Shown here: positions 10,403-57,330 of the stretch, in pieces | How the letters are laid out: the number at the start of each line of letters is the position of its first letter | Position numbering within the stretch: the first letter of the stretch is position 1 | From: Candidatus Omnitrophota bacterium | Lineage (GTDB): Bacteria; Omnitrophota; Gorgyraeia; Zapsychrales; JAHFFX01 | Reading direction: 5' to 3' | DNA length: 64,000 bases | Assembly: GCA_023247705.1 (NCBI GenBank) | Contig: JAHFFY010000001.1 | Span: 33,358-97,357, forward strand | The notes under the pieces: generated by a model | Told to the model about the DNA's origin: nothing | The model's database searches: none | Seen by the model: only the letters and a program-made list of their open reading frames with translations | Position numbers and translations under genes: made by a program

Positions 10403-11359
10403 ATGAATCGTTCTCGACGGCTACGCAAAAATGAAATTATTCGCAATCTGGTCAGGGAAACACGATTAGCGAAAGATCAGCTCATTCAGCCTTTTTTTGT
10501 CTTGGAAGGAAGAAACAGGAAGATTGAGATATCTTCCATGCCCGGGATTTATCGCTATTCAGGAGATTTACTTCTGAAGGCAATTCAGGATTATCAAAAA
10601 TCAGGAGGGAAGGCGGGAATTTTGTTCGGAATTCCCGGGAAGAAAGATTTGCAAGGAAGTCAGGCCTATGCGGACAACGGGATCATTCAAAAAACTCTAA
10701 AACTGATCAAGAAAGAATTTCCAGATTTTTTTGTTATCACTGATGTTTGTTTGTGTGGATATACTACCCACGGACATTGTGGACTTGTGGAAGGCCGACA
10801 GATCCTCAACGATAAAACGCTGCTGCTTTTGACAAAAGTAGCGGTGTCCCATGCGCAAGCTGGAAGTGATATGGTTGCTCCATCGGATATGATGGATTTT
10901 CGGGTTCAGCATATTCGTGCGGGCTTGGATAAGAATGGATTTGAGGATACTCCAATCCTGTCTTATGCCGTCAAGTATTCGTCCGCTTTTTACGGCCCGT
11001 TTCGCGATGCGGTTGATTCAACCCCGCAGTTCGCAGACCGCAAAACTTATCAAATGGATTGTGCTAATCAGCGTGAAGCGATCAAAGAAGCCCGGCAGGA
11101 TGTCATGGAAGGTGCTGATCTGATCATGGTGAAGCCGGCGTTACCGTATTTAGATATCATAACCTTGCTTCGGCATCAGCTCACCGTGCCTATTGTCGGA
11201 TTTAGCGTTAGCGGAGAATACGCGATGATTAAAGCGGCGGCTCGAGCCAAGTGGATTGATGAAAAATCTTCAGTTCTGGAAAGTTTAATTGCGATTAAAC
11301 GCGCAGGTGCGGACATAATTATCTCCTATTACGCGCATGAAGTTTTAACATGGATATAA
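10403..11359 (+). CDS. hemB: Porphobilinogen synthase (delta-aminolevulinate dehydratase)
   Basis: Full-length ALAD-like sequence with the zinc-type Cys cluster DVCLCGYTTHGHCG and the Schiff-base lysine context DLIMVKPALPYLD. Confidence 0.9.
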   Translation: MNRSRRLRKNEIIRNLVRETRLAKDQLIQPFFVLEGRNRKIEISSMPGIYRYSGDLLLKAIQDYQKSGGKAGILFGIPGKKDLQGSQAYADNGIIQKTLKLIKKEFPDFFVITDVCLCGYTTHGHCGLVEGRQILNDKTLLLLTKVAVSHAQAGSDMVAPSDMMDFRVQHIRAGLDKNGFEDTPILSYAVKYSSAFYGPFRDAVDSTPQFADRKTYQMDCANQREAIKEARQDVMEGADLIMVKPALPYLDIITLLRHQLTVPIVGFSVSGEYAMIKAAARAKWIDEKSSVLESLIAIKRAGADIIISYYAHEVLTWI

Positions 11360-12633
11360 AAAGATCGAAGCAGATATTTAAGGAAGCCCAGACCGTCATG
11401 GTAGGGGGTGTTAATAGCCCGGTGCGATCTTTTCGGTTGGTGGGAGGACATCCGTTGGTGATGAAATCGGGTCAAGGAAGCCAGTTATTCGATGAAGACC
11501 AAAATGCTTATACGGACTATTGTTTATCCTGGGGCTCTTTGATTCTAGGGCACAGCCACAAAGATATTGTCCAAATCCTGAAAAAAGCGATTGTCCATGG
11601 GACAAGTTTTGGAACCACGACCTCGGCTGAACTTGAGATCGCTAAATTTATTACCAAAAATATTCCATCAATTGAACGCGTTCGGTTTGTTAATTCCGGA
11701 ACTGAAGCAACGATGAGTGCAATACGCGTGGCCAGGGGGTTCACAAAAAAAGAAAAGATCATCAAATTTGATGGCTGCTATCATGGCCATTTTGATGATT
11801 TGTTGACAAAAGCGGGATCCGGCGTTGCCAATTTATCGGAATCCTCGAGTCTTGGGATTACGAAGAACCATATCCAAAATACCTTCAGCCTGCCATTCAA
11901 TGATAGCCAAACGTTTGAAAAAATTGTGACCCAGCATAAAGCTGAAATTGCCTGCGTGATCATTGAACCTGTTGCTGGCAACATGGGGGTTATTCCAGCT
12001 AAAGAGGAGTTTTTGAAAACAATCCGGCAAATCACTCAAAAAAATAATATTGTTCTGATCTTCGATGAAATCATGACGGGTTTCCGCAGTCATATCGGTG
12101 GTGTTCAATCAGAGTTAGGTGTCATTCCTGATATGACCTGTTTGGGAAAAATCATCGGAGGCGGATTCCCCGTTGGCGCGTATGGTGGTAAAAGGGAAAT
12201 CATGTCCTACCTTGCGCCGTTAGGTGGCGTGTATCAGGCTGGAACGTTTGCCGGAAATCCTGTCGTAATGCAAGTTGGTCTGGCGACTTTAAAAAATTTA
12301 ACGCCATCTTTTTACAAAAAACTGAATGCCTTTGCGGATCAATTTGCCCAGAAGTTGAATGCTTTTTTTCAAAAGAATCAAATTGAAGCGTTTTTATCGC
12401 ACTATAAATCCATGATGAGTTTACGATTCAGAAAAAAGCCGGTTGCGAATTACGAAGACGCTGTCGCAGCCTCTTCACAAGCAAAGTATTCTAAAGTTTT
12501 CCACCAGTTATTACGCCATCAAATCTATTGGCCTCCAGCTGATTTGGAAGCATTTTTTTTGTCCGGATCTCATACGCAAGCAGATTTAAATGTGTTATAT
12601 CGATGGATATGTGATTATTTCAGTAAAAATTAA
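11350..12633 (+). CDS. hemL: Glutamate-1-semialdehyde 2,1-aminomutase
   Basis: Class-III aminotransferase layout with VNSGTEATM, FDEIMTGFR and the PLP-lysine context CLGKIIGGG. It overlaps the hemB stop by 10 nt. Confidence 0.9.
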   Translation: MDIKRSKQIFKEAQTVMVGGVNSPVRSFRLVGGHPLVMKSGQGSQLFDEDQNAYTDYCLSWGSLILGHSHKDIVQILKKAIVHGTSFGTTTSAELEIAKFITKNIPSIERVRFVNSGTEATMSAIRVARGFTKKEKIIKFDGCYHGHFDDLLTKAGSGVANLSESSSLGITKNHIQNTFSLPFNDSQTFEKIVTQHKAEIACVIIEPVAGNMGVIPAKEEFLKTIRQITQKNNIVLIFDEIMTGFRSHIGGVQSELGVIPDMTCLGKIIGGGFPVGAYGGKREIMSYLAPLGGVYQAGTFAGNPVVMQVGLATLKNLTPSFYKKLNAFADQFAQKLNAFFQKNQIEAFLSHYKSMMSLRFRKKPVANYEDAVAASSQAKYSKVFHQLLRHQIYWPPADLEAFFLSGSHTQADLNVLYRWICDYFSKN

Positions 12634-12683
12634 TTTAGAATGCTAAACATTTTAAGCGTTTGCAAAAGAAAGGAGATGCCGTA

Positions 12684-13079
12684 ATGTACAAGTTCTCTAG
12701 AAATTTATTTTTTGCGTTTTTAGTCGGGGTCATTTCTTTTTCTGCTTCAGGGTGCCTGCCTTTAGTCGTTGGCGCTGCAGCCGGAGCGGGAAGCGTTATT
12801 TGGGCCAAGGGGACCATTCAACAAGATTTCAATAGACCACTTAATAGCGTCTATAAAGCAACCAAGGTGGCCCTGAAGAAACTGGATGTGCCTATTATCG
12901 TTGATAAGAAAGATAACTTGACTGCTCATCTGGAATCGCAATTTGCAGATGGGAAGAAGATCAAAATCGATATCGAATATGTTTCAACCTACACGTCCAA
13001 GATCTCGATCCGGGTTGGCACCCTTGGCGATGAGAATAAATCCAGGGAAATTTTGGAAATGGTCATAAAATATCTCTAA
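12684..13079 (+). CDS. Small lipoprotein of unknown function (DUF3568-like)
   Basis: Signal peptide with lipobox SASGC. AAAGGAGA lies 8 nt upstream of ATG 12684; the TTG 12660 in the track is less likely. Confidence 0.5.
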   Translation: MYKFSRNLFFAFLVGVISFSASGCLPLVVGAAAGAGSVIWAKGTIQQDFNRPLNSVYKATKVALKKLDVPIIVDKKDNLTAHLESQFADGKKIKIDIEYVSTYTSKISIRVGTLGDENKSREILEMVIKYL

Positions 13080-15323: not shown

Positions 15324-15339
15324 TGGCACACTAGTTGCT
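15324..15339 (+). promoter_or_regulatory. Sigma-54 (-24/-12) promoter, TGGCAC-N5-TTGCT
   Basis: TGGCACactagTTGCT matches the consensus in both elements and in spacing. It lies 86 nt upstream of the first gene of the EPS array and is divergent from rpoN. Confidence 0.75.
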
Positions 15340-15648: not shown

Positions 15649-16488
15649 ATGAAACACAATATAAAAACATTTAATATTCTGATTTTAGCTTTAATGGCCA
15701 TTCTATTGGACTTTAACGTTGTTCACGCCGAAAATTATGCTGGCGGGAATCCAGAGATCAAAGCTAAAGAACAAACTCAAAAATTAACAGAAACCAAGAA
15801 TACTGATACTACTAAAGAAGCTCAAGAAGGGATGGTAGTCCAGGAACCTAGCGCAGAAGATATTCTTCAGCAATCACAATCTTTATCATCGGAATCTGAT
15901 CCGAGTCGATATACGTTAGGAGTCAATGACGTGATCGAAATATCTGTATTGCGCCATCCAGAAGTCACAGGGCAATATGTGATTAATAGTGAAGGCAAGA
16001 TCCAATACGAATTTGTCGGAGATATTAAAATTCAAGGAAAGACAAAGGATGAGGTCAAGGCGATCATAACCGAAAGTTTATCAAAATATATCGTATCTCC
16101 GGATGTAACAGTTAAAATCAGCGGATATAACAGTAAAGTCGTCTATGTCATTGGAGAAGTTGGAAATCCGGGAAAGATTTATATGCGAGGAGATACGATT
16201 ACCATTCATGAAGCTCTCCTGCAAGCGGGCTTACCGCTTTTAACCGCTTCTACGCGAAAAAGCAGGCTCATAACACCTTCAAAAGAAGGAAAGGCTTCTC
16301 AAAAATTCGTTAATGTGGAAGCTTTGCTGTATGAAGGTGACTTAAGAGAAAATTTAGTGATGAAACCTGGAGATACTCTTTATATCCCAGCAACTGTTAT
16401 GGCGAAGGCTATGAGAGTTATTTCTCCGGTCGCTCAACCAGTCGGAGCAGCCGCTACTACTGGAAGAACCGTTACGACAGGTTTTTAA
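15649..16488 (+). CDS. Polysaccharide export protein (Wza/EpsE-like; Poly_export + SLBB)
   Basis: Signal peptide, then YTLGVNDVIEISV...INSEGKIQYEFVGDIKIQGKT..E and a GEVGNPG soluble-ligand-binding beta-grasp region. Confidence 0.8.
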   Translation: MKHNIKTFNILILALMAILLDFNVVHAENYAGGNPEIKAKEQTQKLTETKNTDTTKEAQEGMVVQEPSAEDILQQSQSLSSESDPSRYTLGVNDVIEISVLRHPEVTGQYVINSEGKIQYEFVGDIKIQGKTKDEVKAIITESLSKYIVSPDVTVKISGYNSKVVYVIGEVGNPGKIYMRGDTITIHEALLQAGLPLLTASTRKSRLITPSKEGKASQKFVNVEALLYEGDLRENLVMKPGDTLYIPATVMAKAMRVISPVAQPVGAAATTGRTVTTGF

Positions 16489-47419: not shown

Positions 47420-48564
47420 AAACCATATTCTGGATTTTATTCATATTAATCGTGTACTGTTATTTTGGATATCCGATCCTGCTTAGCGTTTTCGCCAGCT
47501 GCCGTACGCGAAAAGTTATAAAACAAGAAATTTTTCCAACCATTTCCGTTGTGATCTCGGTTGCGAATGAGGAATCGGTCATTGAGAAGAAGATGAGTAA
47601 CCTTTTATCCATGGATTATCCTTCCGACAAACTGGAAATTTTAATCGGATCGGATGGTTCAACGGATAAAACGAATGATATCGTCCGAAATTTTAACGAC
47701 AAACGCATTCAGCTAATTGTTAGTTCACAGCGAAAAGGGAAGATGGCGACCGTTAATCAACTGGTTCAACTGGCCCAAAACGAAATGATCGTTTTTACGG
47801 ATGCCCGTCAGATGTTTGACCGAGTTGCTTTTAAGGAATTGGTTTTTAACTTTGCCGATCCACACGTAGGATGTGTCAGCGGAGAGTTGATTTTTACGAA
47901 AAAGGAAGGCTCGACCGCTCAGGGAATTAATCTATACTGGGAATATGAAAAATTTATGCGTCAAAAAGAAAGCCAACTTCATTCCATGATCGGGGCAACA
48001 GGAGCGATCTATGCGATCCGTCGAAAATTGTTTGTTCCTGCGCCGACCAATATGATTTTGGATGATGTTTTTACGCCGCTTAAAATTGTTCAACAAGGGT
48101 ACCGTGCGATCTTTGAGGGACAGGCGATCGCTTACGATGAAGCGGCAAACAACCCAAAAGAAGAATATGCGCGGAAAGCCAGAACCTTAGCCGGCAATTA
48201 TCAGATATTTTTTGTTTTGCCGGACATCTTTAACCCCTTGAAAAGTCCTTTGGCGATTCAGATGTTCTCGCATAAACTGCTAAGGGTTTTGATCCCATTT
48301 TTTTTGATTTTTTTGCTCATTATCAATTTTAAATTAAGAAACAATCAATTTTTTATTTTTATTTTATGGGGCCAGATCCTTTTCTACGGGATGGCGATAT
48401 TGGGAAGCTTGGCAAAAAAACCAAAATATGCTATTCTTAAGCCTATTTCTAAAATGTGTTATATTCCCTATGTCTTTTGTCTCCTTAATTTCTCTGCTTT
48501 AGCTGGATTTTGGCGCTTTGTTCGGTCTTCGCAGACGGTCACTTGGGAGAAGGCAAGGACTTAG
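47416..48564 (+). CDS. Membrane-embedded family 2 glycosyltransferase (synthase-like architecture)
   Basis: An N-terminal TM, ISVVISVANEE, GSDGSTD and FTDARQ, then three or more C-terminal TM helices. Confidence 0.7.
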   Translation: MKTIFWILFILIVYCYFGYPILLSVFASCRTRKVIKQEIFPTISVVISVANEESVIEKKMSNLLSMDYPSDKLEILIGSDGSTDKTNDIVRNFNDKRIQLIVSSQRKGKMATVNQLVQLAQNEMIVFTDARQMFDRVAFKELVFNFADPHVGCVSGELIFTKKEGSTAQGINLYWEYEKFMRQKESQLHSMIGATGAIYAIRRKLFVPAPTNMILDDVFTPLKIVQQGYRAIFEGQAIAYDEAANNPKEEYARKARTLAGNYQIFFVLPDIFNPLKSPLAIQMFSHKLLRVLIPFFLIFLLIINFKLRNNQFFIFILWGQILFYGMAILGSLAKKPKYAILKPISKMCYIPYVFCLLNFSALAGFWRFVRSSQTVTWEKART

Positions 48565-48586
48565 CGAAACGATTCAAAATAACGAT

Positions 48587-49405
48587 ATGCGTGAGTTAAT
48601 TACAAAATATAAAAACCAATTTTTAATTGCTTTAATCTTATTATTTACCTATACGCCCACATTAATTTGGATGTGGGATCGATGGTTTACTCGGGATTCT
48701 TATTATTCGCATGGGATTCTTATTCCATTCATTACAGCTTATTTAATCTGGCAGAATAGATCACAGTTAATGCAGATGAAACCAGAAAAATCCGAGATAG
48801 GGATGAAATTGATCATTCTCGGACTGTTTGTTCATTTAATTAGTTCTCTTTTCCGGGTTTATTTTTCCTCTGGTTTTTCTCTGGTGATTGTTATTATCGG
48901 ACTCATTCTTTATTTTTATGGAGAAAAAATTTTAAAAGATATCTCGTTCCCGATCGTTTTTTTATTTTTTATGGTTCCCTTACCGCTGGTTGTTATTATC
49001 AATATTAGTTTTAAGATGAAATTATTCGCGGCTCAAATTGCGGCTGTTGTGTTAAATAGCATGAATATTCTGGCGGTCAGGGAGGGGAGCCTGATTCGCA
49101 TGGCTAATGCCCAAGTTGTCGTCGATGATGTCTGCAGCGGGTTGCGATCTTTGATGTCGTTGACGGCCTTAGGAAGCATTTTTGCGTATTGGATGAAAGG
49201 GCCGATGTGGAAGCGGCTTTTACTGTTTTTGTCTACAGTCCCCATCGCGGTGATCACAAATGTGTGCCGAATTATATTGCTTGCTTCGGTCAGCGAGATT
49301 TGGGGGTCGAAATACGCGACGGGGTTTATTCATGATCTTTCTGGCTTTATTGTTTTTGCGTTAGCTTTTATTTTATTGTATTCAGTTTCTAGGTTAATGG
49401 AATAA
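48587..49405 (+). CDS. Exosortase (EpsH/Xrt family transpeptidase)
   Basis: Polytopic membrane protein with catalytic-residue contexts DDVCSGLRS (Cys), NVCRI (Arg) and HDLSG (His). ATG 48587 was chosen; the track start at 48518 overlaps the upstream gene. Confidence 0.85.
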   Translation: MRELITKYKNQFLIALILLFTYTPTLIWMWDRWFTRDSYYSHGILIPFITAYLIWQNRSQLMQMKPEKSEIGMKLIILGLFVHLISSLFRVYFSSGFSLVIVIIGLILYFYGEKILKDISFPIVFLFFMVPLPLVVIINISFKMKLFAAQIAAVVLNSMNILAVREGSLIRMANAQVVVDDVCSGLRSLMSLTALGSIFAYWMKGPMWKRLLLFLSTVPIAVITNVCRIILLASVSEIWGSKYATGFIHDLSGFIVFALAFILLYSVSRLME

Positions 49406-49407
49406 AT

Positions 49408-50043
49408 ATGATACGTGATAAAAATTTTGGCATCATTGTTTGTCTTCTATTAATTTCCGGAATAATTTCCTGGGTTTTATATTTCAAGGAATATACTCAA
49501 GTGGATACAGTGGATATTACCAAATTTCCGAAATCGATATCGGGCTGGACAGCTGAAGATCTTCCAATCAGCAAGGAAGAGTATGATATTTTAGAGACTC
49601 ACAATGTCGTAGCAAGGCGTTATAAAAATATTCAGAATGAACCGATATATCTCTTAATTGTTTATTCTCAGCATAATCGCAAAATTTCTCATCCTCCAGA
49701 AGTTTGCTATACAGGGGGAGGCGTTACTATTTTAGAAAATGTTAAAGATAAGATCCCTGTTTCTGCAGGAAAGAATATAATCAGTGCGAACCGATTACTT
49801 TTAGAGCTAAGGGGGACCAAGCAGTTTTCGTATTATTGGTTTAAAGTAGGCGATTCGTTTACCGCGAACTATTGGAATCAACAAGCCCTCATTGCCGTAA
49901 AAACATTGTTTGGGCAGCCTCATAGTAGCGCATTAATTCGAATTTCATCCGACATCAGCAAGAATGATGAAAAAGGGGCTATTGATCGAATTAAGTACTT
50001 TACAAATTTGATCCTAAATGATTTAAATCGATATCTGCCGTAA
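49408..50043 (+). CDS. EpsI-family exosortase-associated protein
   Basis: One N-terminal TM plus a ~180-aa periplasmic domain. It starts 2 nt after the exosortase stop, which is the usual Xrt-EpsI pairing. Confidence 0.7.
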   Translation: MIRDKNFGIIVCLLLISGIISWVLYFKEYTQVDTVDITKFPKSISGWTAEDLPISKEEYDILETHNVVARRYKNIQNEPIYLLIVYSQHNRKISHPPEVCYTGGGVTILENVKDKIPVSAGKNIISANRLLLELRGTKQFSYYWFKVGDSFTANYWNQQALIAVKTLFGQPHSSALIRISSDISKNDEKGAIDRIKYFTNLILNDLNRYLP

Positions 50044-50297: not shown

Positions 50298-50313
50298 TGG
50301 CACATTATTTGCT
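50298..50313 (+). promoter_or_regulatory. Sigma-54 (-24/-12) promoter, TGGCAC-N5-TTGCT
   Basis: TGGCACattatTTGCT is the second exact consensus match in the window. It lies 45 nt upstream of the sugar transferase start. Confidence 0.75.
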
Positions 50314-50357
50314 ATAAAGATTGTGTACCAAAGTTTAACAAAGCTAAATTTACATCT

Positions 50358-51224
50358 ATGGAAACTCAGAAAAAAATCAATCACAACTCTAAAGGAAAAA
50401 TGACAGTTGTTTTAGCGGTCATTTTCCTCATGCTATTTGTTCAAGCAGCTTGGGCGACCCTTTCCTTTCTCAAACCGTATGACAGTGACATCCAATCAAC
50501 GAATATAAAGGAAGGCAATGCATCAGAAATTCCTGAGCAATTACCCGAAAATTCGAAATCGCATGCTCCTGAGCCGACAACTCTAGCGTTATTTGGGAGT
50601 GGTGTTCTTGGGATGGTTGTGAGTGCCATTCGAAAGGCTTATAACCATGCAAAAAGAATTTTTGATATATTTGTATCAATTGTCGCTTTTATCATCCTTT
50701 CTCCATTGTTTTTATTTGCTGCCGTTCTCATCAAGTTGAGCTCCCGCGGACCGGTTTTGTTCACCCAAGAGCGAGTAGGAAAAGATGGAAAACATTTCAA
50801 AATTTATAAATTCCGTACCATGCGCGTGGATGCTGAGAAAGAAACAGGGCCGGTTTGGGCAAAGGCAAATGACACTAGACTTATCCCTTCCGGACGTTTT
50901 TTAAGAAAGACTCATATTGATGAAATCCCTCAGTTTTTTAATGTCCTTATAGGTGACATGAGTATTATTGGGCCAAGACCTGAACGGCCAGTTTTCGTAA
51001 CTAAATTTAAAGAAATTATTCCTGATTATGAACAAAGACTATCAGTCAAACCGGGCATTACTGGTTTAGCGCAAGTTTGGCATAAATATGATGAGACGAT
51101 CGAAGATGTCCGTAAAAAAATCCGTTATGATTTGTTATATATTAAAAAGTTATGTCTTTGGACTGATTTAAAGATATTTTTAAGGACTTTTCGGGTTGTT
51201 CTAACTGGAGAGGGAGCTCGATAG
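50358..51224 (+). CDS. Priming phosphoglycosyl transferase (bacterial sugar transferase, PglC/WbaP-C type) with an N-terminal signal peptide + PEP-CTERM-like module
   Basis: The catalytic part carries KRIFDIF, a re-entrant helix, FTQERVGKDGKHFKIYKFRTM and IGPRPE. Residues 1-99 form a signal peptide (..VQAAWA), a polar linker, and HAPEPTTLALFGSGVLGMVVSAIRK. Confidence 0.8.
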   Translation: METQKKINHNSKGKMTVVLAVIFLMLFVQAAWATLSFLKPYDSDIQSTNIKEGNASEIPEQLPENSKSHAPEPTTLALFGSGVLGMVVSAIRKAYNHAKRIFDIFVSIVAFIILSPLFLFAAVLIKLSSRGPVLFTQERVGKDGKHFKIYKFRTMRVDAEKETGPVWAKANDTRLIPSGRFLRKTHIDEIPQFFNVLIGDMSIIGPRPERPVFVTKFKEIIPDYEQRLSVKPGITGLAQVWHKYDETIEDVRKKIRYDLLYIKKLCLWTDLKIFLRTFRVVLTGEGAR

Positions 51225-51377: not shown

Positions 51378-52289
51378 ATGAAGAAGTTATTTGTAGTTTT
51401 AGCCCTAGTTGTTGGAGTGTTCTCAATTAACTCCCAAGTTTGGGCACAACCGTTTACACCATCGATGGCGGGAGATACTTATGATACTACGCCAGATGCG
51501 ATCCCGACTCCTAAGGATAATAATGATAACTTAGGACCTTATTCGGGTACGCCTTATACGTTAAGTTCAACAGAACCTGGTTCACATGGACCTAACCCGG
51601 CGGACATCAACGATGCCATCAATTTGCTTTTGAGCACTGCTTACGTAAGAAATCAAGATGTTGATTTCCTTCGTTTTCTTGGCCCAGATGCAACCTGGAA
51701 AGACTTGAGCACAATAGATAACGATGGAACATATGTGCTCGTTTCTCTTACCGCAGCTAACGAAAATACCTTAAGAGTGTATGATGTGGCTTCACCTGGG
51801 ATTAAATTGAATGTTCTTGGCCCAGATCGGGGTTTTGGATATACTGGGGATGGAAGCCTGGCTAAACCTTTTGAGGCTGGTTTTTCTCCATTAACTCCAG
51901 GAACGAACTTTGGTTGGTCACTAAAAAGTGAAAGAAAGGCACCCCAGACTCCTCCATTTTTTGTAAGAGAATGGGATTCCAATGTCGCTTTTAACGTTGA
52001 TGGTTTGGATCATATGTTGACATACCATTTAGCCGATTTAAAAGGTAAGAAAGTTTACATCAAAGTTGGCACGGTTGTTCAGCAGTATACGTTTAACGAT
52101 CCATATCTTTTAGCCTGGGAAGACAAAGGATTAGGCACAGATGGTAAACTAGGCGATGAAGATTATGATGATCTTATTTATCTAGTTGATCGCGTTCAAC
52201 CTTTCAACCCGGTTCCAGAACCGATGAGCATGATGTTGCTCGGTAGTGGGTTGGTTGGTTTAGTTGGTTTAAGAAAGAAGATTAGTTAA
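51378..52289 (+). CDS. Secreted PEP-CTERM sorting-domain protein with DUF4114-like acidic motif
   Basis: Signal peptide (..SQVWAQ). GDEDYDDLIYLVDRV resembles DUF4114. The C-terminus VPEPMSMMLLGSGLVGLVGLRKKIS carries the PEP motif, a TM helix and a basic tail. Confidence 0.85.
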   Translation: MKKLFVVLALVVGVFSINSQVWAQPFTPSMAGDTYDTTPDAIPTPKDNNDNLGPYSGTPYTLSSTEPGSHGPNPADINDAINLLLSTAYVRNQDVDFLRFLGPDATWKDLSTIDNDGTYVLVSLTAANENTLRVYDVASPGIKLNVLGPDRGFGYTGDGSLAKPFEAGFSPLTPGTNFGWSLKSERKAPQTPPFFVREWDSNVAFNVDGLDHMLTYHLADLKGKKVYIKVGTVVQQYTFNDPYLLAWEDKGLGTDGKLGDEDYDDLIYLVDRVQPFNPVPEPMSMMLLGSGLVGLVGLRKKIS

Positions 52290-52381: not shown

Positions 52382-52660
52382 ATGTCAAAAGACACGAAAA
52401 AACTTTTATCTTTTGCCCTTATCTCGTTATTTCTCCCGTTCTTTGTCGGGTGTCAAGGTGCTGCCAATCAACTAAGTGAATTCACCTTGGGTGGGGGTGG
52501 TACAAACAATGCTGTTAGTTCTGGTTTTTTCCCCCTTAGTGTTGTAGATGGAGGTACTGCGATAGCAGCCATCCACAATCCAGAACCTACAACAGTGTTA
52601 TTGTTAGGGAGTGGCTTCATAACAATGGGTTTATATAGGAATCGAAGAAAGAATAGATAA
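52382..52660 (+). CDS. Miniature PEP-CTERM protein with lipoprotein-type signal peptide
   Basis: 92 aa. The N-terminus LFLPFFVGC is lipobox-like, followed by a Gly-rich ~40-aa core and the C-terminus NPEPTTVLLLGSGFITMGLYRNRRKNR. GGAGAGGAGG lies upstream. Confidence 0.75.
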   Translation: MSKDTKKLLSFALISLFLPFFVGCQGAANQLSEFTLGGGGTNNAVSSGFFPLSVVDGGTAIAAIHNPEPTTVLLLGSGFITMGLYRNRRKNR

Positions 52661-52836: not shown

Positions 52837-53706
52837 ATGAATAAGCATAAAAACAATAAAAGTTTGATTTCTTTGCTGCGGTCATCAATTGAGATTCTAT
52901 TTCATAAACCATTGATTTTCTATCCCTATGTGATTTCAATTTTTATTCAACTTTTTGTGCTTGAAATTTTATACTTTGCACCGCGGTATCCTTTATCGCT
53001 ATTTTTTGCTCCCCTGATCAGACAATTTTGGGGGGAAATGTTTTTACATTTTCCGTTTAATCTCCTTTTATTGCCTGTTTTATTCCAATACGTAAAAACC
53101 CCGATTTATATTATCTCGAGCAGTTATCTCATTGGGATAGCAATCATTATCATCGCTGCCATTAACGAAGATCAAACGATTAGCTTTAAATCGGCCGCCA
53201 AAAAGGTATTGCCTCGCTATATCCATTTGATCTTCATCACTAGCATTTCTTATTCACTTTTTTATGGATTTTCGCAACTTTATGGATTGGTGATCAAAAG
53301 GGCCTTTATTATTCACTCTGAGACAGGAATATTTTATTTAATTAAGCGGATTGTGCTTGATGGGACTCCCTTTTTCTCCCTTTTAATAAGCGTTTTTGTT
53401 TCGACCCTCTTAGTTTTTATGATGCCGCTCCTCCTGCTCGAAAAAAAGAATTTATTCGCAGCGTTTTGGACTAATTTGAAGAAAGTTATTAAATCCTTCT
53501 GGTTTGTCTTGGGGATTGTTTTATTGCCGACCTTGTTATATCTGCCAGTCTTGTTATTGAGTAGTAATCTATCGAGTTTTGGAAATGGGGTTGCTCCTGA
53601 AATCCGAATGTCCCTCACAATAGCCAATATCCTTATTATAGTGATCATTGATGCCATCGTTTATACAGCGATAACATTATATTATTTATTTGATCAAGAA
53701 AATTAA
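52837..53706 (+). CDS. Polytopic membrane protein, unknown function
   Basis: Six or seven hydrophobic helices. No family was recognised. Confidence 0.4.
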   Translation: MNKHKNNKSLISLLRSSIEILFHKPLIFYPYVISIFIQLFVLEILYFAPRYPLSLFFAPLIRQFWGEMFLHFPFNLLLLPVLFQYVKTPIYIISSSYLIGIAIIIIAAINEDQTISFKSAAKKVLPRYIHLIFITSISYSLFYGFSQLYGLVIKRAFIIHSETGIFYLIKRIVLDGTPFFSLLISVFVSTLLVFMMPLLLLEKKNLFAAFWTNLKKVIKSFWFVLGIVLLPTLLYLPVLLLSSNLSSFGNGVAPEIRMSLTIANILIIVIIDAIVYTAITLYYLFDQEN

Positions 53707-54614
53707 TGATTAAACGATCAATATTAATCTTTACCAGCATTCTCACCGTAGTCTATGGAATTCTTACTTTCCTTGACAGGGGGGGAGAGTATCAAGTCGA
53801 GCAGATGATTTGGAAGGCGAATGAAAAATTTCATGAGATCGCCAGAGATCCTGCCGCAGTTCCCGATCAATCTTTTGACCAACTTAGTCGACAGTATCAA
53901 AAAATTATTGAAAAATTCCCTAAATCGCCGTTAGCCAAAAAAGCGTATTTGGCGATTGGAAGGTTATATTTGGTGCAAAAAGATTTTCCGAAAACACGAC
54001 TAGTCATGGAGAAAGTCCTGCAAAGATATCCGGATGATCAGGATTTCTCAGCGGAATGTCTTACGGTCATAGGAAAATCATATGAGTTGGCAGGAGATCC
54101 GGTCAACGCGGTTAAGGTTTACACAGGCATAATGACCCAATATCCTGTAACGGATATCGGACTAAGTACGCCGTTATATATCGCAAATTATTACAAGAGC
54201 ATAAATCAAAACAATAAATTTATGTCAGCCTATAATAGTGCGATTTCACATTATAAAACTCTATCAGCGAAATATCCTAATTCCTCAACAGATCTGAAAA
54301 GTCTTCGTTTATTGGCGAATTGTTATATTGAAATGAAAATGTGGAATGAGGCCGTAGAGACTTTCGGACAGATATTAATATCATACCCTTCTAAGGCTGA
54401 TCTCACCCCGCAACGGGCAAATTTGATCCTCAAATCGATTAATACTATTTCAACCATCCAGCTTAAGAATTATGATATTCCGATACGCATATACCAAAAC
54501 TTCATTGATCAACATCCCCAACATGGTTTAAACAAGGTTCTCCATGAGATGATAAAATCCTTTAATCTCTTGCGAATTAAAGGCGTGGAGGTCGACACTA
54601 AGAATGCGGGATAA
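53706..54614 (+). CDS. Tetratricopeptide-repeat protein with N-terminal anchor (short PrsT-like?)
   Basis: N-terminal TM/signal, then repeated A..Y..G/A..Y TPR-like 34-mers (e.g. AKKAYLAIGRLYLVQKDF). Confidence 0.55.
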   Translation: MIKRSILIFTSILTVVYGILTFLDRGGEYQVEQMIWKANEKFHEIARDPAAVPDQSFDQLSRQYQKIIEKFPKSPLAKKAYLAIGRLYLVQKDFPKTRLVMEKVLQRYPDDQDFSAECLTVIGKSYELAGDPVNAVKVYTGIMTQYPVTDIGLSTPLYIANYYKSINQNNKFMSAYNSAISHYKTLSAKYPNSSTDLKSLRLLANCYIEMKMWNEAVETFGQILISYPSKADLTPQRANLILKSINTISTIQLKNYDIPIRIYQNFIDQHPQHGLNKVLHEMIKSFNLLRIKGVEVDTKNAG

Positions 54615-54632
54615 ATCCTACGCTTGATTATC

Positions 54633-55934
54633 ATGACTAGAACACTAGAAGATTTTTCTCACAGCATTCTTTTTCAAAAAATTAGCGATATTTGTGCCAG
54701 CGTTAATATCGTTAAGAATGCGCGCGAACTTTTAGAATTGTCCTTGAAGCAAACGATGGATCTTTTTGGCGCAAAAAGAGGCTCGATTTTTATTTTTAAT
54801 GAGAATAAGAAAGAATTGATCCTGAAGATCGCGCATGGTATGGAAATAAATGAACAAAAGCAAATGGTCAAACGTTTGGGAGAAGGAGTGGTCGGTAAGG
54901 TTGCTCAAATCAAAAAGCCTATTGTTGTCTATGATATCGCGGATGACAGCCGATTTAACAATTTTAAACCTAGGCGAAGCTATCATACACCATCGTTCAT
55001 TTGTGGTCCGCTGTTAATTAAAGATAAACTCATAGGGGTCATTAACATTGCGGATAAAAATTCTGGACATCGTTTTAATAATGAAGAGCTTCAGCTCCTT
55101 GATTTTTTGTCAAGTCAGATTGCCCTGAACTATCGGCGCATACAACTGTATCAGAAATTTAAGAATTTAGTCAAAGAGTCCAAATACCTTAAAACTAAAT
55201 TAGGCAAAAGCAGCGCTGAAGCAGATGATCTAAAGAAGAAAATTGTAGTGCAAGAAAAATTTGCCTCAATCGGGAAACTTGCTGGAGGCATTGCGCATGA
55301 ATTTAATAACCCTTTAGATGGCGTTATCCGCTACACAAATCTTTCGTTAGAGCATATTAAAGACGATGATGTCGTTCGTGGATATTTATTAGAAATTAAG
55401 TATGGCCTTAATCGTATGGCAAATATCGTGAGAAGTCTTCTTGCCTGTTCACGAAATTCACGTCTTGCTATAGAGGAAATCGAAATTAATCGTTCGATTG
55501 AACAAGTGATTCTTAATCTTAAATCAGAAATTGCATATAAGAAGTTAATCATCGAGAAAGATTTTGATCATACGATCCCACCGATTATGGATTTAGGGAT
55601 GGAGTTAATCGTTTCCAACTTGTTTCGTAATGCCATTGACGCAGTTGATAAGGGGGGGAAAGTCACGGTTGTTACGCGAAATTTACACAATTATGTTTCG
55701 CTTAAAATCATTGATTCAGGATGCGGATTTTCAAGAGAATTAGCTCAAAAAATATTAGAGCCATTTTATACAACCAAAGACATTGATAAAGGATGTGGCT
55801 TAGGGTTAACGATTGTTAACGAAATCGTCAAGAGTTATGACGGAAAGATGACGATTGAAAGCGTCCCGAAAAAAGGTTCAACATTCACGATTTTTATTCC
55901 ATTAAAGATAAAAGATGAAAAAAGAATTATATAG
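54633..55934 (+). CDS. Cytoplasmic GAF-domain sensor histidine kinase
   Basis: A GAF region (GSIFIF...GVVGKVAQ...), the H-box HEFNNPL, a FRNAIDA N-box, DSGCGF and GLGLTIV. No TM segments are present. Confidence 0.8.
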   Translation: MTRTLEDFSHSILFQKISDICASVNIVKNARELLELSLKQTMDLFGAKRGSIFIFNENKKELILKIAHGMEINEQKQMVKRLGEGVVGKVAQIKKPIVVYDIADDSRFNNFKPRRSYHTPSFICGPLLIKDKLIGVINIADKNSGHRFNNEELQLLDFLSSQIALNYRRIQLYQKFKNLVKESKYLKTKLGKSSAEADDLKKKIVVQEKFASIGKLAGGIAHEFNNPLDGVIRYTNLSLEHIKDDDVVRGYLLEIKYGLNRMANIVRSLLACSRNSRLAIEEIEINRSIEQVILNLKSEIAYKKLIIEKDFDHTIPPIMDLGMELIVSNLFRNAIDAVDKGGKVTVVTRNLHNYVSLKIIDSGCGFSRELAQKILEPFYTTKDIDKGCGLGLTIVNEIVKSYDGKMTIESVPKKGSTFTIFIPLKIKDEKRII

Positions 55935-57330
55935 CGCCTATCACATCCTCATTGTAGATGATGAGCCGCTGATTCGACAGTCATTGTATGAAATCTTGAG
56001 AATTGAGGGCTACAAAGTACATATGGCTCAAAATGGAGAAGAAGCGATAGAATTACTCAAAAAATTTCATATTGATATTATTTTAACGGATATGAAGCTT
56101 CCTAAAATGAGCGGGCTTGATATTCTGACTTTTGTGAAAGAAAACAAGCCTGACATCGAAGTTATATTAATAACGGGTTTTGGAACAATCGAATCTGCTG
56201 TCGATGCCATGCGAAAAGGGGCTGCAGACTATATCACAAAACCAATCAATGATAGTGAAATTAAAATTATTCTTAACCAAATTGTAGAACGCAAACAAAT
56301 TCTTAAAGAAAATTTAAATTTAAAAAAGATTATCGCACAAACTTCCCGAAAATCTTTTTGCAGTATCATTGGATCCAGCCCGAAAATGCAGAAGGTCTAC
56401 CACGTGATTGACTGTGTTGCAAGCACGAATGCGACAGTCCTAATTACAGGGGAAAGTGGAACAGGAAAGGGTTTGGTGGCGAGAGCAATTCATGAAAGTG
56501 ATCAGAATCGATCCGAGAAACCTTTTGTAGAGGTCAGCTGTGGGGCTCTTTCGGAAACATTGCTTGAAAGTGAGTTGTTTGGACATGCCAAAGGATCATT
56601 TACTGGAGCAATTCGAGATAAAGAGGGAAGATTTGAAATCGCGCAGGGTGGAACGATTTTTCTCGATGAGATTGATGCATTTTCGCCTAATTTACAAGCG
56701 AAACTTTTACGCGTATTGCAAGATGGAGTATTTGAACGTGTTGGCGATAACCAAACGCGAAGAACTAATGCTCGAATTATCGTTGCCACCAATCAGGTTT
56801 TAACCGATTTAGTGGAGAAAGAACTTTTTAGAGAAGATCTTTATTACCGAATCAATGTGATTTCGATTCAATTGCCTCCGTTACGAGAACGAAGGGATGA
56901 TATTGATTCTTTAATAACGCATTTCATTCAGATGTATGCCCAAAAAAATAATAAAAAGATTACTAAATTATCAGAAGATGCCCATAAAGTTTTTATAACA
57001 TATGAATGGCCAGGAAATATTCGTGAACTGGAAAATGCCATCGAAGGCGCTGTCATTATGACGAAAGACCATGTCATTAATATTTCAGATGTCCCCAATC
57101 ATACCAAATTTTCAGCTTCAACGTCGTTAAGCACTAATAAATCATCAAGCTCTAAATCTCTTAAGAAAGTGTTAGAACAGCCAGAAAGAGAACTTATTCT
57201 TTCTGTTCTCGATGAATGCAATTGGAATCGCAACAAAGCCGCGGCGAATTTAGGAATAAACAGGACAACCTTATATAACAAAATGAAAAAATTTAAAATT
57301 ATCTTTGACCGGGTCAAAACGCATGAATAA
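55915..57330 (+). CDS. Sigma-54-dependent response regulator (NtrC/AtoC/PrsR-like enhancer-binding protein)
   Basis: Receiver domain (DIILTDMKLP), an AAA+ domain with GESGTGKG and a GSFTGA loop, and a C-terminal Fis-type HTH (AAANLGINRTTLYNKMKKF). Confidence 0.9.
   Translation: MKKELYSAYHILIVDDEPLIRQSLYEILRIEGYKVHMAQNGEEAIELLKKFHIDIILTDMKLPKMSGLDILTFVKENKPDIEVILITGFGTIESAVDAMRKGAADYITKPINDSEIKIILNQIVERKQILKENLNLKKIIAQTSRKSFCSIIGSSPKMQKVYHVIDCVASTNATVLITGESGTGKGLVARAIHESDQNRSEKPFVEVSCGALSETLLESELFGHAKGSFTGAIRDKEGRFEIAQGGTIFLDEIDAFSPNLQAKLLRVLQDGVFERVGDNQTRRTNARIIVATNQVLTDLVEKELFREDLYYRINVISIQLPPLRERRDDIDSLITHFIQMYAQKNNKKITKLSEDAHKVFITYEWPGNIRELENAIEGAVIMTKDHVINISDVPNHTKFSASTSLSTNKSSSSKSLKKVLEQPERELILSVLDECNWNRNKAAANLGINRTTLYNKMKKFKIIFDRVKTHE

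Follow-up and report, generated by a model that had tools for sequence, protein, structure and literature searches.

PEP-CTERM/exosortase (EpsH/XrtA-type) protein-sorting systems are linked to exopolysaccharide loci (Haft 2006, PMC1569441). In the current model, exosortases strip the PEP-CTERM domain off and may link the cargo to polysaccharide (PMC12188702); the PEP-CTERM genes of known systems are RpoN-dependent and tied to PrsK/PrsR (PMC9850573). In this study, a stretch of 64,000 nt from Candidatus Omnitrophota (assembly GCA_023247705.1, contig JAHFFY010000001.1, positions 33,358–97,357, forward strand; hereafter the window, to which all coordinates refer) was analyzed for one gene, in which a signal peptide, a linker and a PEP-CTERM domain are fused in frame to the priming phosphoglycosyl transferase (PGT) of an exosortase locus. 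This arrangement had been proposed in a preliminary description made from the sequence alone and was borne out by reading of the open reading frame (ORF), profile matches and conservation.

Like the PEP-CTERM/exosortase systems (PMC1569441), the locus has an exosortase, EpsI, PEP-CTERM proteins, a tetratricopeptide repeat (TPR) protein and a sigma-54 two-component regulator. The likeness extends to stp1/stp2-like glycosyltransferases, to Wza/Wzz/tyrosine-kinase-like export genes and, in the sorting domain, to the PEP motif, the Gly-rich helix and the basic cluster. Unlike in ordinary PEP-CTERM proteins, the sorting domain is internal, and the part that is normally discarded is here a whole enzyme. 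Because the cut-offs for XrtA, PrsR and TIGR03013 were not reached (scores below), the locus is regarded as a system of its own that is related to these.

Members of TIGR03013 are large PGTs whose N-terminal domain is made up of several helices, and they are not known to carry a PEP motif. The fusion protein has the same catalytic domain as this family (EpsB_2, XrtA/PEP-CTERM-associated PGT) and the same priming role in an exosortase-linked polysaccharide locus, but it scored 268.9 bits against a cut-off of 393.35, and only profile positions 252–443 of 443 (the 192 C-terminal ones) were aligned. The family's region N-terminal to the catalytic domain therefore has no counterpart here and is replaced by the signal peptide, linker and PEP-CTERM domain.

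In monotopic PGTs of the PglC type, the start of the domain must lie at the cytoplasmic face for the re-entrant helix and the catalytic domain to be located there. Residues 96–286 of the fusion protein aligned with residues 8–189 of PglC (PDB 8e37, 8g1n), a part that takes in KR-x-F-D, the re-entrant helix with its Ser-Pro and the Asp-Glu dyad; the catalytic domain also aligned with that of WbaP (8t53). In the solved PglC chain no more than 7 residues precede the start of the alignment, so the first 95 residues of the fusion protein are extra; they are predicted to cross the membrane twice, or once if the signal peptide is removed. The earlier proposal that the PEP helix delivers the N-terminus of the PGT to the cytoplasm is consistent with the solved PglC, whose residue 8 aligned to residue 96.

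The sortase, archaeosortase and rhombosortase signals (LPXTG, PGF-CTERM and GlyGly-CTERM) are similar in having a motif, a helix and a basic tail read by a dedicated membrane enzyme. To our knowledge, these signals are C-terminal, and their cleaved tails have no further role as described. In the literature searched, where a passing earlier mention is possible, neither a sorting signal ahead of a PGT or other enzyme nor a tail continuing into a functional enzyme was found described; this agrees with the preliminary description, whose author knew of no exosortase signal in a priming enzyme. As far as this literature goes, the N-terminal architecture of the PGT appears to be undescribed. About half of the 120 closest database clusters are annotated with the sugar-transferase domain alone; about half show both Pfam domains but are named sugar transferases only.

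Architecture of the fusion protein

The fusion gene (PEP::PGT) and its parts are as follows.

50358–51224, + strand: PEP::PGT fusion gene, 288 aa plus stop; uninterrupted ORF with no internal stop
50358–50456, + strand: predicted signal peptide, aa 1–33; K-rich n-region, h-region and AWA, predicted cut after A33
50457–50564, + strand: periplasmic linker, aa 34–69; starts with the semi-conserved T-L-S-F-x-K-P-x-D, the remainder variable in sequence and length
50565–50636, + strand: internal PEP-CTERM domain, aa 70–93 (PF07589 and TIGR02595); APEP, an 18-residue Gly-rich helix and R-K
50652–51203, + strand: monotopic PGT catalytic domain, aa 99–282 (PF02397); re-entrant helix (KRIFD...SPLFL) and D188-E189 dyad

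Direct reading of the N-terminal residues gave an n-region from M1 to K14, a 12-residue h-region from V17 to V28 and A31-W32-A33, followed by a polar linker (T34–H69), A70-P71-E72-P73, a hydrophobic segment (T74–I91), R92-K93 and K99-R100. The K-rich n-region, the 12-residue h-region and the conserved AWA fit a type I signal peptide, and the A-x-A rule predicts a cut after A33. In the sorting domain, P71-E72-P73, the hydrophobic T74–I91 and the basic R92-K93 make up the tripartite PEP-CTERM layout. Scoring with the profile hidden Markov models, which the preliminary description had put forward as a check, was positive with both: PF07589 gave 23.0 bits on aa 70–93 (gathering score 20.7; 25.0 with the N-terminal 100 aa alone) and TIGR02595 gave 16.8 (cut-off 16; 18.9 with the N-terminal 100 aa alone). 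Residue 93 of 288 is the last of the domain, and 195 residues of the PGT come after it. Its position thus sets it apart from C-terminal sorting domains, with which it otherwise agrees in its features.

The catalytic domain was recognized by PF02397 (Bac_transf; 233.6 bits, 1.5e-69, cut-off 27, over aa 99–282), and the exopolysaccharide polyprenyl glycosylphosphotransferase profile TIGR03025 (EPS_sugtrans) gave 313.7 against a cut-off of 295.55. In the alignment of homologues, S115 of the re-entrant Ser-Pro break is near-invariant and P116, D188 and E189 are invariant, matching the equivalent PglC residues. An AlphaFold2 model of the fusion was confident for the PGT core and the N-terminal helix. 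The gene product appears to be a precursor of a polysaccharide-priming PGT whose N-terminal 98 residues would form a full exosortase substrate.

The internal motif was compared with stand-alone substrates of the same loci, using 47 distinct PEP-CTERM tails and the PGT internal motifs (28 of 30 distinct internal entries). The substrate tails read [V/I/N]-PEP-[A/M/T]-[S/T]-[M/L]-x-L-[L/F]-G-[S/T/G]-G-L-x-G ... R-[R/K]-K, and the PGT motif reads [K/R]-S-[R/H]-A-PEP-[S/T]-T-[M/L]-A-L-F-G-[S/G]-G-x-x-G-M-x-x-S-F-[V/I]-R-[R/K]-T-Y. The residue profile of the PGT motif matches that of the local stand-alone PEP-CTERM proteins; what lies inside the PGT is a true PEP-CTERM domain, similar in kind to those of the ordinary substrates of the locus.

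Conservation and translation of the fusion

An identical protein was recorded from NCBI, ENA and Logan assemblies, and a separately assembled Logan contig carried the same gene in the same context. A sequencing error, one of the ways in which the preliminary description might have failed, is thereby largely refuted.

The 120 best database clusters were about 250–330 aa long and 60–78% identical to the query, with query coverage of 77–100% (at least 86% in all but two); their source names, where given, were Candidatus Omnitrophota or Omnitrophica only. PEP was located about 25–30 residues before the KR-x-x-D start of the enzyme in 120/120 clusters, 107 of them found by pattern match and the other 13 by eye on the sequences, so that the survey of homologues suggested earlier found the motif in the same place throughout. 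In an alignment of 35 homologues, A70, P71, E72, P73, G80 and G85 were invariant, and A31, A33, T75, L78, F79, G82, M86 and R92 were at least 90% conserved. The consensus at the predicted signal-peptide cut was TAWAT, and differences in linker length appeared as gaps.

Pairwise differences by codon position were calculated on the DNA of 27 loci (the window and 26 related loci). The values for positions 1/2/3 were 0.31/0.16/0.64 in the PEP-helix segment and 0.24/0.11/0.60 in the PGT core. This likeness of pattern indicates that the PEP-helix segment is a translated region under purifying selection. The central linker (aa 45–65) had 88.7% pairwise amino-acid difference, and in the signal-peptide segment codon position 2 was the most conserved, as expected of a hydrophobic coding segment. 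Both the coding signature and the amino-acid conservation reach upstream of M86, the internal Met codon at 50613.

A genome scan recovered the full fusion at 28 loci, all labelled Omnitrophota or apparently mislabelled or mis-binned metagenome-assembled genomes; it used one pattern specific to the PEP::PGT family, and the frequency of PEP and PGT fusions in other phyla therefore cannot be read from it. The matches outside Omnitrophota (loci L030–L068) were ordinary PGTs without PEP or ordinary PEP-CTERM proteins. Eight loci (L005, L006, L010, L015, L017, L024, L026 and L027) are labelled 'uncultured Planctomycetales' despite an Omnitrophota-type locus, and L029, labelled 'Lysobacterales', is a 13-kb contig with an Omnitrophota-type locus that is probably mis-binned.

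These results indicate a genuine fusion that is translated and that the lineage has conserved. For practical purposes they exclude both an artefact and an upstream frame that is not translated, although a minor isoform from an internal start may exist.

Promoter and internal start codon

A promoter of the -24/-12 type precedes the gene.

50298–50312, + strand: sigma-54 promoter, TGGCAC-N5-TTGC, exact consensus, 46 nt before the ATG

In 25/28 related loci, TGGCAY-N5-TTGCT was found 218–284 nt upstream of the PEP codons; the consensus was not found upstream of the distant fused genes (L069–L075) described below. A k-mer count upstream of the sigma-54 promoter for a common activator site gave AT-rich words only.

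Translation from the ATG at 50613, another objection raised beforehand, fails as well: the region upstream of this codon is coding and under purifying selection, and it lies behind the conserved promoter. A Shine-Dalgarno-like word preceded the internal ATG in 8/28 loci only, with no conserved ribosome-binding word upstream of M86 among the 28 loci, and M86 was for this reason rejected as the start of the main product. The residue itself (50613–50615) lies inside the PEP-CTERM helix; Met is 93% conserved at this position in PGT fusions, and Leu, Met or Phe is found in ordinary substrates.

A palindrome, GAAAGCGCTTTC (variants GAAAACGTTTTC), recurs near the PEP::PGT promoter in many Omnitrophota loci. 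It is located about 30–45 nt downstream of the sigma-54 promoter in, for example, L006, L014, L016, L017 and L029, and upstream in L011 and L019; the leader of the window's own gene (50313–50357) has no clear copy. It could be an operator or a short RNA hairpin.

Exosortase locus

The genes surrounding the fusion are listed below.

48518–49405, + strand: exosortase (EpsH/Xrt family), ending 0.95 kb upstream of the fusion; the public gene call starts at 48587
49408–50043, + strand: EpsI, exosortase-associated protein (TIGR02914 91, cut-off 42.8; PF11984), ending 0.3 kb upstream of the fusion
51378–52289, + strand: stand-alone PEP-CTERM protein, 303 aa, DUF4114-like (PF07589 25.2 and TIGR02595 19.4, both above cut-off)
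52382–52660, + strand: small stand-alone PEP-CTERM protein, 92 aa (TIGR02595 21.5 versus 16; PF07589 18.9, below the gathering score of 20.7)
52837–53706, + strand: mem289, polytopic membrane protein without annotation, which adjoins or is near the PGT
53706–54614, + strand: TPR protein with YbgF/BamD-like repeats
54624–57330, + strand: histidine kinase and sigma-54-dependent response regulator (PrsK/PrsR-like), the regulator at 55915–57330

The exosortase matched PF09721 (6e-66), TIGR02602 (173.6, cut-off 105.55) and the TIGR04178 signature (70.5, cut-off 23). With the XrtA profile it scored 184.9 against 208, and it is classified as a generic exosortase (TIGR02602, PF09721). The preliminary description had placed the sorting enzyme 0.3 kb upstream of the fusion; an exosortase is indeed encoded upstream, although the gene at that distance is the one for EpsI. 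The regulator scored 401.3 bits with TIGR02915 (PrsR), below the cut-off of 502.6, its nearest matches being AtoC, NtrC and PrsR, and the kinase gave a weak PrsK match (85, cut-off 300).

The upstream cluster on the same strand contains stp1/stp2-like glycosyltransferases, deacetylases and Wza-, Wzz- and tyrosine-kinase-like export genes. A second PGT was searched for in the 64-kb window and none was found; as the only PGT there, the fusion is likely the priming enzyme of the cluster. The order deacetylase, GT2, exosortase, EpsI, PEP::PGT, PEP-CTERM proteins, mem289, TPR, kinase, regulator and GAF protein is conserved in the 28 loci. EpsI was upstream of the PGT in 25/25 loci reaching far enough, and the exosortase was there in 24/25. 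One further locus had only a divergently oriented exosortase, with no EpsI match.

Distant relatives and fused ectodomains

In a profile search of 1.84 billion cluster representatives, the Omnitrophota family collapsed to one representative. The compact layout was also found in P0122 and P0124, and degenerate motifs occurred in P0125 (VPEA) and P0128 (QPAG), with none in P0132. Other relatives have larger N-terminal parts, such as P0142, which is 372 aa long and has a PKD domain, and P0217, a protein of 421 aa annotated as Elusimicrobiota. Ectodomains of about 180–250 aa (one PKD) precede the PEP-CTERM domain and PGT in distant relatives, of which one is from Elusimicrobiota and the others carry no assignment.

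A follow-up search yielded a set of proteins of 476–492 aa (P0391, P0392, P0394, P0404, P0408 and P0415) consisting of a signal peptide, an ectodomain 'A' of about 220 aa starting with Y-[IV]-I-D-G-x-x-x-D-W-G, a PEP-CTERM domain and the PGT. PF07589 was above the gathering score in 3/3 scanned members (P0391, P0404 and P0408), and shortened versions of about 315 aa were also recovered. The matches to a 78-aa profile of divergent PEP and PGT junctions were short gene fragments almost exclusively and gave no useful survey.

Two ectodomains occur both fused and free. Ectodomain A is fused to the PGT in L070 and L072 and forms the C-terminal half of a separate PEP-CTERM protein beside the PGT in L069. 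The PGT of L069 carries another ectodomain, B, which shares 35–42% identity with separate PEP-CTERM proteins (about 200 aa) whose genes immediately precede that of the PGT in L070 and L072. Because A and B swap between fused and separate forms, the fused N-terminal parts are considered homologues of ordinary exosortase cargo.

Beside the Elusimicrobiota PEP::PGT gene, L069 (one contig) encodes a protein of 525 aa (11301–12878, + strand) with two complete PEP-CTERM units in one frame. Their order is a signal peptide, an ectodomain, a PEP-CTERM domain (IPEPGTLYLL...KDRNTIRR), another signal peptide (MKKQISLFILVIFCMAFSFTAAQA), ectodomain A and a further PEP-CTERM domain. The second signal peptide directly follows the basic tail of the first unit, which is topologically consistent, and the protein looks like a membrane polyprotein. 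Since the second signal peptide has been kept, the junctions would be most simply explained as being cut by signal peptidase and exosortase.

Motif and exosortase in gene neighbourhoods

The PEP-bearing loci L070 and L072 have the PGT, a mem27x gene, TPR, exosortase and EpsI; Wza comes next in L070, and L072 ends just past EpsI. In L075 the contig ends after the mem and TPR genes. Three PEP-less loci (L073, L074 and L076) had no exosortase, EpsI, TPR or PEP-CTERM gene within 10 kb and retained the PGT and an adjacent small un-annotated membrane-protein gene. The TPR gene is conserved in the PEP-bearing loci readable far enough and absent from the three PEP-less ones. With P0407, which has the near-motif variant V-P-E-S-P, the mem and TPR genes are still present. 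This sample is small and made up of neighbourhoods only, but it clearly points one way: loci that have the sorting system retain the motif, and in those that lack it the motif decays. Its decay in the three relatives with no nearby exosortase suggests that it is lost when not needed.

Proposed role and alternative explanations

We consider it about an even call that the exosortase recognizes the PEP motif in the PGT and cleaves there, which would couple polysaccharide priming to protein sorting. The fusion protein would be inserted by Sec and cut by signal peptidase I after AWA. The PEP-CTERM helix would then act as a stop-transfer anchor running from periplasm to cytoplasm, and would so bring the re-entrant helix and the catalytic domain to the cytoplasmic side of the membrane. 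Recognition of the PEP motif and cleavage there would fall to the adjacent exosortase together with EpsI, as is thought for ordinary substrates. A short periplasmic peptide (the full ectodomain in larger relatives) would leave as cargo, and the helix that is usually 'discarded' would be retained at the exosortase or close to it, anchoring an active PGT by its N-terminus. What selection would favour is a coupling of exopolysaccharide initiation to PEP-CTERM sorting in place and amount, through co-localisation, stoichiometry or activation.

Of the cargo, the Omnitrophota proteins retain no more than a variable linker, whereas conservation of the signal equals that of the catalytic core; selection therefore appears to maintain exosortase recognition. 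Linked PEP-CTERM genes being RpoN-dependent in known systems, the sigma-54 promoter and regulator of this locus also count for the proposed coupling. Judged from these sequence features, an exosortase-dependent role for the PGT is likely, with maturation, peptide release and tethering all compatible with it.

Several observations weigh against cleavage of the PGT. The residue before PEP is Ala, after K/R-S-R/H, in the PGT, whereas it is Val, Ile or Asn in local substrates. The helix is also far more conserved in the PGT than in substrates: G15 (90%), M16 (93%), F20 (80%), R22 (93%) and Y25 (93%) are conserved in the PGT helix and flank, and substrates are only 49–64% conserved at positions 15 and 16. 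Either the Ala/basic flank or the extra helix conservation could mean binding without cleavage. The AlphaFold2 model was uninformative at the motif, with predicted local distance difference test values below 50 at residues 42–63 and 65–76. PEP-bearing PGTs with no exosortase within 10 kb were found in L069, L077 and the P0398 contig; the first two have mem27x, TPR and adjacent PEP-CTERM proteins, and the last has export genes only, downstream. Finally, the comparison with PEP-less contexts covered three loci and 10-kb neighbourhoods rather than whole genomes.

The alternative that survives best, although we regard it as somewhat unlikely, is docking without cleavage. The PEP-CTERM helix would be a permanent second anchor that binds the exosortase (or EpsI/TPR) as a pseudo-substrate, and the N-terminal peptide would stay attached, so that the PGT is tethered to the sorting machinery or one enzyme is regulated through the other. 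The strong conservation of the helix and its flanks relative to true substrates would fit such an anchor; the basic K/R-S-R/H-A before PEP suggests constraints beyond those on a disposable signal, and PEP-less relatives keep the N-terminal extension and helix, so this part can persist uncleaved. In the relatives, however, the fused N-terminal parts are homologues of stand-alone PEP-CTERM cargo, and the tandem polyprotein of L069 argues that such junctions are cut. The exosortase match spans the TIGR04178 exosortase/archaeosortase signature region, and nothing therefore suggests an inactive enzyme.

A tolerated fusion is a poorer candidate and seems improbable. Here, a small upstream PEP-CTERM gene would have lost its stop codon and run into the PGT; because the topology fits and the exosortase separates the parts, the change would be neutral and simply inherited. 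Partners do differ among lineages, the same ectodomains being fused or free; PEP-CTERM units are also fused to each other, and L070 and L072 have stand-alone PEP-CTERM genes right before the PGT. A neutral relic should nevertheless decay or be deleted, yet APEP is invariant in 120/120 clusters and stays while the presumed cargo has degenerated to a variable linker, and the motif decays in the three relatives examined that have no nearby exosortase.

Equally doubtful in our view is a wider proposal, in which PEP-CTERM domains would serve as self-resolving junctions of bacterial membrane polyproteins, signal peptidase and exosortase dividing one translation product into a cargo for the surface and a functional membrane enzyme, and, in its strongest form, the exosortase would hand the released peptide or ectodomain to the undecaprenyl-linked sugar of the same PGT. 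If this hand-over to the PGT's own sugar were true, it would identify the long-sought acceptor joining PEP-CTERM proteins to exopolysaccharide.

That the module lies outside the functional enzyme, through a start at M86 or an artefact of sequencing or assembly, is very improbable: M86 is near-invariant and a start there would give a PglC-like N-terminus, but in the absence of a stop codon translation from any start further upstream has to continue into the PGT, both conservation and the coding signature are seen ahead of M86 as well, few loci have a Shine-Dalgarno-like word, the sigma-54 promoter is positioned for the long ORF, and the gene is identical in independent assemblies with the architecture present in 28 genomes.

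Exosortases are almost always encoded among polysaccharide genes, and the fusion bears on the reason for this as well as on their chemistry. Being natural and phylum-wide, and joining the sorting signal to the enzyme with which polysaccharide synthesis begins, it is a 'Rosetta stone' link between sorting and polysaccharide synthesis. The fusion is also a handy test substrate, since a cut would turn this membrane protein of 32 kDa into a small peptide plus an assayable enzyme; it makes recognition, cut site and any coupling to lipid-linked sugar directly measurable. That sorting signals need not be terminal matters for automated annotation.

Neighbouring genes

The 92-aa PEP-CTERM protein had been described as nearly the same as the PGT module at its C-terminus. 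The likeness is confined to the sorting domain (12/25 identities), and the nucleotide match GGGAGTGG between the module and this ORF consists of Gly-Ser-Gly codons and has no extra meaning. The signal peptide of the 92-aa protein ends with L-P-F-F-V-G-C, resembling a lipoprotein lipobox, and the protein may carry a lipid-anchor signal plus an exosortase signal.

No match to mem289 was found in Pfam, NCBIfam or PDB profiles. By tblastn, a homologue was detected downstream of the PGT in most Omnitrophota loci (L002–L029) and in L069, L070, L072, L073 and L075; proteins of this type are about 280–290 aa long. L073 keeps its homologue despite the lost PEP motif and the lack of a nearby exosortase, and the same position in L074 and L076 is taken by a gene without annotation that encodes about 270 aa. 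For PGTs of this clade, the membrane protein may be a core partner.

At the locus of the P0142 PKD fusion (L075:10001–16966), the PGT is separated from the mem/TPR pair by an insertion that comprises a PorV-like gene and the gene for a large beta-propeller protein bearing a type IX secretion tail. In the window, a second exact sigma-54 consensus (TGGCACACTAGTTGC) is present at 15324–15338 (+ strand), about 310 nt before a Wza-like gene at 15649, which opens a long polysaccharide cluster on the same strand.

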